From NCBI GenBank assembly GCA_963712665.1, contig CAVQIV010000022.1, positions 279,215-343,214 on the forward strand: DNA of 64,000 nt. Direction: 5' to 3'. Source of the stretch: Thermoanaerobaculaceae bacterium (GTDB taxonomy: Bacteria; Acidobacteriota; Thermoanaerobaculia; Multivoradales; UBA5704). The position numbers were made by a program, and so were the translations under genes. Within the stretch, counting starts at the first letter, position 1; every line of letters begins with the position of its first letter. Below the pieces are notes generated by a model. The model was not told the origin of the DNA, searched no databases, and was given only the letters and a program-made list of their open reading frames with translations. Below are positions 25,601 through 28,600 of this stretch, piece after piece.

Positions 25601-28600
25601 GCGGGTGGCGAGCAGCGAGTGCCCGCCGAGGCCGAAGAAGTCATCGTCGGTGCCCACGCGCTCGACGCCCAGCACCTCGGCCCACAGGCCGGCGAGCAGC
25701 TCCTCTTCAGGAGTCCGCGGCGCCGTCCACCGGGTCTCCGCTGCCGCAGCCGGAGCCTGTAGGGCCTTGCGGTCCACCTTGCCGTTGGGGGTGCGCGGCA
25801 GGGCTTCGAGGGCGACCCAGGCCGCGGGCACCATGTATTCGGGGAGCCTCGCCTGCAGATGGGCGCGCAGCTCGGCCGGGAAGCCGGGGAGGGGCTCGGA
25901 GGTCGCCACATAGGCCACCAGGCGCAGGTCGCGCGCTTCGGCCCCGGGGGCCCCGCTCTCGCGCGCCACCACCACGGTCTCGCGCACCGCCGGATGGGAC
26001 TGGAGCGCCGTCTCGATCTCCCCCAGCTCGATGCGGAAGCCTCGCACCTTGACTTGGTGGTCGAGGCGCCCCAGGAACTCGAGCTCCCCTTCAGGCGTCC
26101 AGCGGGCAAGGTCGCCCGTGCGATAGAGGCGGGCGCCCGGCGCGGCAGCGAAGGGATCGGGGACGAACCGCTCGGCCGTCAGCTCGGGCCGGCCGAGATA
26201 GCCGCGGGCGAGCCCCCGGCCGGCCAGCAGCAGCTCGCCAGGAACGCCTACCGGCAGGGGGTGGAGGTGGGCGTCCACCACGTAGGCCCGGGTGTTGGGG
26301 AGCGGCCGGCCGATGGTGGGCTCGCCGGCGATTCCCACCTCGGAGATCGTCGAGTAGGTCGTGTCCTCGGAGGGGCCGTAGAGGTTGAGCAGGCGCCTCA
26401 CGGTGCCGAGCCCGTGGAGGCTCCGGGCGAGGGTGCCGCGCAACGGCTCGCCGGCCAGGTTGACCGTGCGCACCGAGGCGGGCACCGCCCCCTGCCGCAC
26501 CAGCTCCGCCATGGCCGAGGGCACGGTGTTGACCAGCGTCACCTCCCCCGCCGTTGCCGCCTGGAGGCGGGGCAGCTCCAGGGCGTTCTCGGCCAGGATC
26601 ACGCAGCCGCCCGTGGCCAGGGGGACGAAGATCTCGAAGACCGAGAGGTCGAAGCAGATGGAGGTGGCGGCCAGGACCCCCGCCAGCTCCGCCGGTGCGA
26701 AGGTCTCCCGCGCCCAGTGGACAAGGGCCGCGGCGCTCCGGTGCTCGATAGCGACACCCTTGGGCCGGCCCGTGGAGCCGGAGGTGTAGATCACGTAGGC
26801 GAGCGCCTCTGCGCCAGCCCCCTCGCTGCCCCTGTCGTCCTTGTCGTCCCTACTGTCCTTTCCGTCCTCTCCATCCACGAGAACCACTTGCGCGCCATAC
26901 CCCGATACCAGCCCGGTCAGGCTCCTCTCGGTCACCAGCACGGGGGCCGCGCAATCCGCGAGGATCGCCGTCAGCCGCTCTTGCGGATAAACGGGATCGA
27001 GGGGCACGTAGGCGCCGCCGGACCCGAGCACGGCGAGCATCGCGGCCACGAGGTCCGGCGTGCGGGAGAGGAAGATCCCCACCGGCACCTCGGGGCCCGC
27101 TCCCAGGCGCCGCAGCCGGCGGGCGAGGCGCGCCGCGCGGCCGGCCAGCTCGCCGTAGGTCCACCGCGTCTCGCCATGGATCAGCGCCACGGCCCCGGGC
27201 GTACGGCGGGCCTGGGCCGCAAAGAGCTCGTGCAGGAGATCGCCCTCTGGCCACTCCGTCTCCCGCCCGCTCCAGCCGCCCAGGATCTCCGCGCGCTCCT
27301 CCGCGGTGAGCAGCGGCAGCTCGGAGAGGAGTCGGCCGGGATCGGCGAGGAGACCGGCGAGCAGCGTCTCGTAGTGGCCGGCCAGGCGCTCGATCGTTCC
27401 CGGCGCGAAGAGATCGGAGCTGTATTCCAGCCAGCCCCCGAAGCCTCCCGGCCGCTCTTCCAGCTCCAGGGTGAGCTCGAGCTTGGCGGTGCCGGGATGC
27501 ACGTCCAGCCGGCTCGCCGCGAGGCCCTGAAGCGCCGGCGCGGCCGGCCTCCCCTGGAACACGAACAGCACCTGAATCAGCGGATTGCGCGACAGGCTCC
27601 GCTCCGCGACCAGGTCCTCGACGAGCCGCTCGAACGGCAGGTCCTGGTGGGGATAGGCGGCGAGCGTCGCGGCGCGGGTCCGCGCCAGCAGCTCGCGGAC
27701 CGGCGGATCGCCTGAGAGATCGCCGCGCAGCACCAGGGTGTTGACGAAGCAGCCGATCAGCCCTTCGAGCTCCACCCGGCCGCGATTGGCCACCGGTGAG
27801 CCCACCAGCAGGTCCTCGGCTCCCGTGTAGCGGCCGAGGAGCGCTTCGAAAGCGGCAAGCAGGACCATGAAGGTCGTCGCCCCCTCGCGGCGGCCGAGGG
27901 CCGTCACGGCCGCCGACAGGCCGGCGGACAGGGAAATGGGCAGGCGCGCGCCGCGCGACGAGAGGAGCGCCGGGCGTGGATGGTCGGTGGGCAGCTCCAG
28001 GGTGCGGGGTACGCCCGCGAGCCGCTCCCGCGCCGCGGCGAGCCGCGCCTCCAGAGATTCGCCCTGGAGCCAGCTCCGCTCCCATAGGGCGAAGTCGCCA
28101 TACTGGAGAGGGGGCTCGGGCAGCGGCGACGGCTGCCCTGCCACGAAGGCGCCGTAGAGGGCCGCCACCTCGCGCAGGAAGACCTCCATCGACCAGCCGT
28201 CCGCGGCGATGTGGTGCATGGCGGCCAGGAGGACGTGCTCCGCCGCACCCAGCCGCAGCAGGACGGTGCGCAGCAAGGGTCCGCCGGCGAGGTCGAAGGG
28301 CCGGCGGGCCTCGGCCACGGCCAGCCGCTCCACCTCGCCGGCGAGCCCCGCGAGGTCCACGACCGGCAGGTGCGGCGCGGGAGCCGGCAGCGTCCACTGC
28401 ACCGGGCCCTCCGGCCCGGGGGCGAAGCGCGAGCGCAAGGCCTCGTGCCGGCGCACCACCTCGGCCAGAGCGCGGGAGAGAGCTGAAACGTCGAGATCTC
28501 CCGCCAGCCGCACGCCGCCCGCGATGTTGTACGTGGCCTCGCCCGGCGCGAGCTGGTCGAGGAACCAGAGCCGCTCCTGGGCGAAGGAGAGGGGGAGTCC

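Follow-up and report, generated by a model that had tools for sequence, protein, structure and literature searches.

The stretch of DNA analysed here (the window) comprises 64,000 nucleotides (nt) of contig CAVQIV010000022.1 from a Thermoanaerobaculaceae bacterium, has a G+C content of 70.8% and holds 11 nonribosomal peptide synthetase (NRPS) adenylation (A) domains, all on the minus strand. The third of these domains contains a run of 9-nt units which a first-pass annotation, made from the letters alone, had taken for a repeat inserted in frame. The open reading frame (ORF) that encodes it, 16181-30406(-), matches the Pfam families Condensation, AMP-binding, AMP-binding_C and PP-binding several times each, with an AMP-binding match of E=0 in 5 stretches. 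The 11 A3 cores follow one another in order on the minus strand, confirming the numbering of modules 3, 8 and 11 used in that annotation. Module 3 has the features of an NRPS adenylation domain (PF00501/PF13193), as its A1 to A10 cores, including NGKVDR, can be read in order, and its matches in the Protein Data Bank (PDB) are LgrA and McyA, with E values down to 1e-183. The features on which the analysis turns are the following:

33124, 29941, 26788, 23614, 21742, 18586, 15377, 12142, 8968, 5742, 2543 (-): A3 cores of modules 1-11, in that order
25748..27310 (-): module-3 adenylation domain, from Pfam AMP-binding and AMP-binding_C, PDB matches and AlphaFold2
26993..27028 (-): module-3 A2 core, motif read in the translation
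26789..26992 (-): A2-A3 variable segment of module 3, 68 codons, with the repeat filling its distal half
26828..26872 (-): coding repeat, five imperfect 9-nt units, NNN-ARG-GAC on the coding strand and GTCCYTNNN on the plus strand
26756..26803 (-): module-3 A3 core, motif read in the translation

On the plus strand, GTCC recurs at 26837, 26846, 26855 and 26864, an exact 9-nt period, and both these positions and the reading frame upstream of the module-3 A3 core were as first described. The plus strand of the repeat reads GCCCCTGTC GTCCTTGTC GTCCCTACT GTCCTTTCC GTCCTCTCC, and its reverse complement, the coding strand, reads GGAGAGGAC GGAAAGGAC AGTAGGGAC GACAAGGAC GACAGGGGC. These five units lie in frame within ORF 16181-30406(-) and are translated as G-E-D G-K-D S-R-D D-K-D D-R-G, so that the minus-strand peptide of the third A domain contains VDGEDGKDSRDDKDDRGSEG directly upstream of its A3 core. 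Tandem Repeats Finder rated the repeat weak (score 33, 71% matches), and the longest perfect repeat within it is GGACGACA, present twice. Identity at lag 9 was 0.72 over 45 nt, which places the repeat in the top 0.02% of 45-nt stretches, while lags 3, 6, 12 and 15 were at background level. Across the 64 kb, a lag-9 identity of at least 0.72 over 45 nt was reached only by 26828-26872 and by 48289-48340, and the two best period-9 loci of the window (26828-26872 and 48293-48337) have the hexamer GTCCYT in common, on the same strand. The pattern GTCCYTN3GTCCYT was matched 7 times where 0.00 matches were expected, and GTCCN5GTCCN5GTCC, in which three GTCC are spaced 9 nt apart, 5 times where 0.03 were expected. 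A relaxed scan, requiring 5 of 6 hexamer positions in at least three units and compared with the expectation from shuffled sequence, returned strong arrays only at these same two loci (0.09 expected), together with a weak minus-strand array at 42857-42883 and, if periods of 8-10 nt were permitted, 51769-51807.

Measured from the A2 core (GGAYVPLDP) to the A3 core (YTSGSTG), the A2-A3 segment is 68 amino acids (aa) long in modules 2, 3 and 4; elsewhere it measures 70 aa (module 1), 67 aa (module 9), 66 aa (module 11), 63 aa (module 8), 61 aa (modules 5 and 6) and 53 aa (module 10). The modal length was 67 aa among the A domains of the best database homologues (44 of 100, range 58-92), and the 89 A domains examined in 80 metagenomic loci had the same mode of 67 aa. 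The closest homologue that we found, locus L121, is 72% identical at the amino acid level, is nearly identical to the protein fragment P0002 and also has a 68-aa segment. Its DNA aligned with that of module 3 over 243 nt with zero gaps, and similarity collapsed only at columns ~130-188, in the loop, where L121 reads GVDAEEAETGAETPEVDAPVPGS. The first 18 nt of the L121 loop match the module-3 array at 12 of 18 positions, at the array start, which indicates that a local seed existed. The solved A domains of LgrA aligned across the repeat stretch with gaps of just 1-4 residues. When the 11 modules were aligned with MAFFT, module 3 exceeded module 8, the paralogue nearest to it in the window (64% identity), by 5 aa, and modules 4 and 9 by 1 aa.

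The A2-A3 loop has no conserved residues among homologues, and that of module 3 has the length canonical for its clade with a different filling. Since its length is modal and its homologue aligns with it without a gap, the repeat occupies an ordinary hypervariable loop and adds nothing to it. It is a rewritten stretch of surface loop at normal length, and the in-frame insertion originally proposed is contradicted by the spacing, by the gapless alignment with L121 and by the short gaps against LgrA. The comparison with modules 8 and 11, on which that proposal leaned, held in part: both modules lack the D/K-rich stretch, but the alignment does not delimit an insertion. The first-pass annotation had itself named an ordinary linker, present in the paralogues too, as the finding that would speak against it, and this is nearly what we observed, in that the loop is ordinary but its sequence is not common to the paralogues. 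An interrupted A domain was likewise rejected, given a spacing of 68 aa against a mode of 67 and no extra Pfam domain. Our searches returned no close orthologue of module 3, the best protein match being a fragment that covers 82% of the query at 77-79% identity and the best match in the metagenome scan reaching 72%.

The AlphaFold2 model of the module-3 A domain, built with 62 aligned sequences, had a mean predicted local distance difference test score (pLDDT) of 92.6 and a predicted template modelling score of 0.90. Residues 146-170 were modelled as a coil between strands 142-145 (VVLV) and 171-177 (LAYVIYT). Within this coil, the block KDSRDDKDDR (residues 151-160) had a mean pLDDT of 61, the lowest in the N-terminal part of the domain, and the only other block of comparably low confidence was the A8-A9 loop (pLDDT 66). 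The repeat loop is thus predicted to be disordered.

The codons of the repeat set it apart from the surrounding gene. Its 15 codons include AGG twice (both of its Arg codons), GGA twice and AGT, which in the ORF make up 4.8% of Arg, 9.3% of Gly and 0.9% of Ser codons, respectively, and only 0.7% of random back-translations under the ORF's own usage gave an equally improbable set. The coding strand of the repeat is 82% purine, placing it in the top 0.06% of 45-nt stretches.

Outside the NRPS genes, the window holds two intergenic arrays that had been assigned to the same family as the coding repeat:

48293..48337 (+): non-coding array, five GTCCCTGCT-type units, Tandem Repeats Finder score 62
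51769..51807 (+): degenerate array of period ~10, GTCCGTCATC GTCCTTGTCC GTCCTTGCCC GTCCGTGCT

The array at 48293-48337 lies 14-58 nt upstream of the ATG of ackA (48351), between ackA and a divergent FTCD_C-like gene; a scan for sigma-70-type promoters, with other promoter types outside its scope, gave no sigma-70-like match there. Written as reverse complements, its units are AGCAGGGAC, GACAGGGAC, AGCAGGGAC, TGCAAGGAC and AGCAGGGAC. Units 3-5 of module 3 (AGTAGGGAC, GACAAGGAC and GACAGGGGC) match intergenic units at 8 of 9 positions, whereas they match one another at only 5-7 of 9, with AGTAGGGAC and GACAAGGAC having AGCAGGGAC and GACAGGGAC, respectively, as their intergenic counterparts. The second array follows ORF 51814-52647(-), 7 nt 3′ of its stop codon, so that it is not evidently in a promoter, where 51767-51806 had been placed, and with a lag-9 identity of 0.33 its membership of the repeat family is weak.

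Named database matches of the ackA of the window are 73-81% identical and mostly come from metagenome-assembled genomes of Thermoanaerobaculia. Relatives with a 92-98% identical ackA (L120 and L201-L203) cover the neighbourhood of this gene only. In L203, an independent forest-soil assembly that is 91.7% identical over 2.2 kb, the array is identical at 45 of 45 positions, with unchanged copy number, and falls within a 224-nt perfectly identical run (48282-48505) that covers the array and the first 155 nt of ackA; in a 92% relative, such a run is more likely to be a recent recombination tract than a sign of constraint. L202, which is 86.7% identical and has the same gene order, carries at the array site an unrelated 35-nt AT-rich spacer, of which only ...CCCTGATAC resembles the last unit. 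The array is also missing from L120 and L201, whose local gene order differs. These three relatives indicate that the array arose within the lineage, and the 45 nt standing in place of a 35-nt spacer amount to a replacement at similar length, as in the coding loop. The label slippage-prone given to the repeat was not borne out: its units are imperfect (lag-9 identity 0.72, 71% matches), and the intergenic array is unaltered in the 8%-diverged L203, albeit within the possible recombination tract. The array also sits at the edge of a rearranged block, 47264-48350, which compared with L120 and L201 lacks an HVO_A0114-like gene and has its DUF1801 and FTCD_C-like genes arranged differently.

A tripeptide-periodic loop was found in one of the 100 homologues, P0004, which is 60% identical and comes from a JGI contig that is 3.6 kb long and has 73% G+C. 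The codons of its loop, ETRDERDGRDSRSD, are ACC AGG GAC GAG AGG GAC GGC AGG GAC AGC AGG AGC GAC and contain (NNN-AGG-GAC)x3, its A2-A3 spacing is 69 aa, and it has CAGGGACAGCAGG exactly in common with the intergenic array at 48293-48337. A scan of one genome per species with the pattern GTCCYTN3GTCCYTN3GTCCYT gave at least 118 loci. Among them, L072 (Thermoanaerobaculia SMAG_U7022) carries GTCCTTGCA GTCCTTGCC GTCCTTTAT GTCCTTGCC in the A2-A3 loop of an A domain in sense orientation, that is, (GTCCTTNNN)x4 in the orientation opposite to module 3; the loop reads ...KVICWEDLPSLQSLPSFMSLPVSPDNLAYVMYTSGSTG and the spacing is 65 aa. Here the same DNA, read from the other strand, yields the unrelated peptide SLQSLPSFMSLP, which argues against selection at the peptide level. 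In L042 (Thermoanaerobaculum sp.), GRDSKDGRDEEDERDG occupies what, from reading the translation, is a linker between two aldehyde-dehydrogenase-like halves, and the C-terminal tails of L027 and L078 contain xKD arrays. In the arrays of module 3, P0004 and L042, every one of the nine Arg codons is AGG.

The membership of one repeat family that had been claimed for the coding repeat and the two intergenic arrays is supported for 48293-48337, by its units, hexamer and strand, and is weak for 51767-51806, with its period of 10 and low lag-9 identity. The codon usage, the common units, the recurrence in the same loop of two other A domains, in one of them in opposite orientation, and the many loci in Thermoanaerobaculia and other Acidobacteriota together support this family and an origin at the DNA level.

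Among the listed loci of the genome scan, 13 belong to Thermoanaerobaculia or Thermoanaerobaculum and ~17 more to other Acidobacteriota, and three assemblies (DATANP01, JAJKHS01 and CAYQYP01) have more than one locus. Many of the remaining listed loci are arrays of identical units, such as GTCCTTGCC (antisense GGC-AAG-GAC), which outside Acidobacteriota we take to be collagen-like or other coding repeats. Most of the listed Acidobacteriota matches are inverted pairs of the form (NNNAAGGAC)3-6, 4-45 nt, (GTCCTTNNN)3-6. These paired elements are 80-110 nt hairpins, mostly from Thermoanaerobaculia, with minimum free energies of about -48 to -99 kcal/mol and often with an outer inverted repeat, for example GCCTGCGCGGCAGAAA...TTTCTGCCGCGCAGGC. 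In 11 of 13 paired elements, no more than 30 nt separate the element from the stop codon of an ORF that its G+C content at third codon positions supports, and 0 lie inside such an ORF:

L002 2567-2679: paired hairpin
L003 4570-4660: paired hairpin
L010 2884-2965: paired hairpin
L011 5839-5947: paired hairpin
L038 6804-6898: paired hairpin
L068 1742-1823: paired hairpin
L081 1432-1545: paired hairpin
L088 3703-3801: paired hairpin
L091 502-590: paired hairpin
L030, L050, L065 and L070: further paired hairpins

The paired hairpins may be terminator- or REP-like; we found no description of them in the literature searched. The window itself contains single arms only and no paired element. Hairpin or otherwise structured DNA or RNA was rejected for the arrays of the window, whose folding z-scores were 0.31 and -0.12 (both strands), and no Rfam 15 family matched the arrays or the paired elements at the gathering threshold. 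An Acido-Lenti-1 small RNA match lies in the Thermoanaerobaculum locus L002 at 1234-1278, away from the arrays. By eye, the purine strand suggested a G-quadruplex, with G3-N6-G3-N6-G3-N15-G3 in the intergenic array and in P0004 and only three tracts of G3 or more in module 3; this was rejected as a property of the family, as arrays of the AAGGAC type have no G3 tracts. A collagen-like Gly-X-Y repeat was ruled out for module 3, where Gly starts only 2 of the 5 units.

The A2-A3 loop itself is a frequent site of short repeats. In NRPS loci, 7 of 15 period-9 arrays fall in the A2-A3 interval, which makes up ~6% of the sequence, at a threshold of at least 83% identity between successive units that module 3 itself fails, 2 of the 7 having been ascertained through the repeat itself. 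A second 9-nt family, the quasi-palindromic GATCSGWCS (D-R/P-T/S), occurs in unrelated high-GC soil-metagenome A domains, at the following positions:

L121 1268-1305: GATCSGWCS copy
L127 4425-4467: GATCSGWCS copy
L142 4398-4440 and 8209-8248: GATCSGWCS copies
L186 4452-4487: GATCSGWCS copy

It fills the A2-A3 loops of the first A domain of L121 (L121-A1), of L127, of L142 and of L186, as well as the A6-A7 loop of L142, and in L121-A1 it adds ~14 aa (84 versus 68-70). A short GATCSGWCS copy is also present in the window at 29093-29114, in the A8-A9 region of module 2 (RSDGSVRSSGD). Other A domains have independent 9-nt and 6-nt repeats in the A2-A3 loop. PMC11355689 and PMC8097286 describe whole methyltransferase domains naturally inserted between a2 and a3 in TioN and MarQ and, the latter citing Labby et al. 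2015, a segment that takes very large insertions without loss of adenylation; these natural insertions mark the site as a known permissive one.

We favour, with moderate confidence, a neutral and length-preserving overwrite of the permissive A2-A3 loop of module 3 by a 9-nt unit typical of the lineage. The loop between the post-A2 β-strand and the A3-bearing β-strand would have been overwritten at constant length over 45 nt in its middle, its sequence being replaced through tandem copying of the purine-rich NNN-ARG-GAC (consensus antisense GTCCCTGCY) by replication slippage or by short-patch, microhomology-guided copying. Thermoanaerobaculia (Acidobacteriota) also carry the same unit in non-coding arrays, and different sites might have been reached either by local slippage under a sequence bias or by short-patch copying from such dispersed arrays. 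With a unit of exactly three codons, the frame is kept whatever the number of copies, and the array would be tolerated because of this three-codon unit, of the charged and disorder-friendly x-(K/R)-D frame and of its place at the most permissive site of the domain. The module-3 stretch probably acts only as a flexible spacer with no catalytic role. What we infer is how the copying took place, that it was neutral and which of the coding and non-coding arrays descended from the other. Several points weigh against an overwrite of this kind. Slippage in situ fails on its own to explain how independent sites came to have the hexamer and the rare Arg codon in common, so some shared source or sequence-specific bias is required. 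The units are just 72% alike at lag 9, so that they give no sign of recent slippage. Our searches yielded no orthologue with an aa identity above 79%. In addition, collagen-like and xKD coding repeats confound the motif search, as among its Actinomycetota matches, so that the motif by itself is not diagnostic, and neutrality is an assumption.

Alternatively, the array could be one arm of a dispersed, possibly mobile 9-nt-periodic hairpin element that was captured in frame by illegitimate recombination or gene conversion and survived only in permissive loops and frames, in analogy to Rickettsia palindromic elements inside genes. We regard this as possible, though doubtful. In favour of such a capture are the A2-A3 loops of three A domains that contain the unit, in one orientation or the other, its presence in the linker between the aldehyde dehydrogenase halves of L042 and in the C-terminal tails of L027 and L078, the closer match of module-3 units 3-5 to intergenic units than to one another, the exact identity of CAGGGACAGCAGG in the intergenic array and P0004 and the uniform use of AGG for Arg. 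The several Acidobacteriota assemblies with more than one matching locus and the position of the paired elements next to stop codons and outside supported ORFs also fit. However, the three loops show zero net gain in length (68, 69 and 65 aa against a mode of 67), coding sequence holds single arms only, neither terminal inverted repeats nor a target-site duplication were found at the flanks of the repeat, and no transposase or other mobilising function was identified. The absence of length gain, terminal repeats and target-site duplication argues against the insertion of a classical mobile element, and the suggestion that the repeat is mobile was not borne out. Moreover, L121 shares partial sequence at the array start, and (x-K-D)n encoded with AAG is the default codon choice, so that several of the coding matches need no element.

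Selection at the protein level for an acidic/basic (x-K/R-D)n loop, for example for solubility, electrostatic docking of a partner protein or contact between modules, would make the DNA periodicity a by-product. Charged loops are common here in the clade (charged fraction 0.43 in P0003, 0.40 in P0049 and 0.38 in P0004), and both the reading frame and the loop length are kept. Nevertheless, rare codons speak against long-term selection of the peptide with ordinary codon drift, so does the hydrophobic/polar product of the same DNA in the other orientation in L072, the loop has no conserved residues in homologues and is predicted to be disordered, and the closest homologue, L121, differs in sequence there; we therefore find this explanation improbable. 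Chance periodicity or an artefact of assembly could be invoked in view of the low Tandem Repeats Finder score and of the several single-base frameshifts in the assembly. We consider it very improbable, given that shuffled sequences are expected to yield 0.00-0.09 arrays, that the locus is among the top two for lag-9 identity, that its frame and both its flanks are intact and that the sister array is reproduced exactly in the independent assembly L203.

The apparent frameshifts lie at four places in the window: at 25079-25189, as a compensated out-of-frame stretch in a condensation domain; at ~16256-16300, where a change of frame terminates the 4741-aa ORF within a condensation domain; at ~15398, in the A2-A3 loop of module 7, where an extra G gives CTCGGACAAC instead of the expected CTCGACAAC; and at ~45900, in an SMC gene, followed by read-through towards a DinB-like gene. 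They reflect either indel errors of the assembly or a gene cluster in decay. In the A8-A9 variable loop of module 6, at 17636-17674, 15 nt (5 aa) are duplicated in tandem (TAFPG-AFPG) and several of the codons are rare, and this duplication and the module-3 repeat are the richest rare-codon stretches of the large ORF. The strongest tandem repeat of the window is at 57938-57997 (21-nt unit CCTGCTCGCGATGAAACGTCT, 2.9 copies, score 85), and a tRNA gene lies at 59391-59462 (Rfam, 77 bits).

Among known systems, the interrupted A domains of TioN and MarQ have their insertions at the same a2-a3 position, but module 3 has neither an inserted nor an auxiliary domain and a segment of modal length (68 aa), only the loop sequence being unusual. 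Low-complexity segments made by slippage likewise combine a unit that is a multiple of three with a hydrophilic, disordered peptide in an unconserved loop, although plain local slippage does not predict the same rare-codon unit in non-orthologous loops, in opposite orientation and in non-coding DNA. The unit recurs at unlinked loci above chance, with two strong and one weak array in the window against 0.09 expected, and is placed in intergenic DNA near gene starts or stops at 48293-48337, at 51769-51807 and in 11 of the 13 paired elements, and in both respects it resembles dispersed short tandem repeats (STRR). The STRR heptamers of cyanobacteria and the GGGNATC repeats of Xanthomonas and Nostoc are dispersed 6-9 nt units that occur in 2-26 tandem copies at many, mostly intergenic loci, less than ~50 bp from gene starts (antisense strand) or stop codons, a placement that 48293-48337 fits (PMC4692102). 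The unit described here differs in being 9 nt long, with a conserved hexamer and a variable triplet, in often forming inverted pairs and in having no consistent G-quadruplex motif; coding loops contain it too, whereas coding DNA has fewer GGGNATC repeats than expected (PMC4692102).

The paired Acidobacteriota hairpins, in lying immediately 3′ of genes, are reminiscent of REP/BIME and REPIN elements, and it is RAYT transposases that mobilise REPs. A REP is a palindrome of 20-40 bp that bears a GTAG or CGTC tag (PMC3733652), whereas the elements reported here are 80-110 bp long, with arms of 9-nt periodic units. Another likeness is to the Rickettsia palindromic elements (RPEs), a dispersed family of non-coding hairpin repeats that can also be part of a protein sequence, in frame and at tolerant positions. 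They were reportedly found in frame within protein-coding genes by Ogata et al. in 2000. They are reviewed in PMC10969869. RPEs are present as whole elements of 100-150 bp that add length, whereas here a single arm-like array of 27-45 nt brings no gain in length. We can only tentatively suggest, and hold it to be rather unlikely, that ARGGAC with its variable triplet defines an undescribed dispersed family of Thermoanaerobaculia and related Acidobacteriota that forms 3′ hairpins and also repeatedly overwrites permissive protein stretches (the A2-A3 loops of NRPS genes, whichever way the array points, a linker between domains and C-terminal tails) in a sequence-directed, length-neutral manner, as RPE-like elements that 'overwrite' instead of 'insert'.

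For annotation and for NRPS engineering, the module-3 repeat is one more sign that the A2-A3 loop accepts almost any sequence, and it would be wrong to annotate the stretch as an inserted element, as a frameshift hazard or as determining specificity. What is known of NRPS chemistry would remain unchanged by an overwrite of the loop, even if it is true. The recurrence of a rare-codon unit hints at a lineage-specific, length-neutral writing of periodic DNA into tolerant places. If this is true, it would provide a small new example of repeat families shaping disordered protein segments, as well as a handy marker for the almost uncultured class Thermoanaerobaculia.

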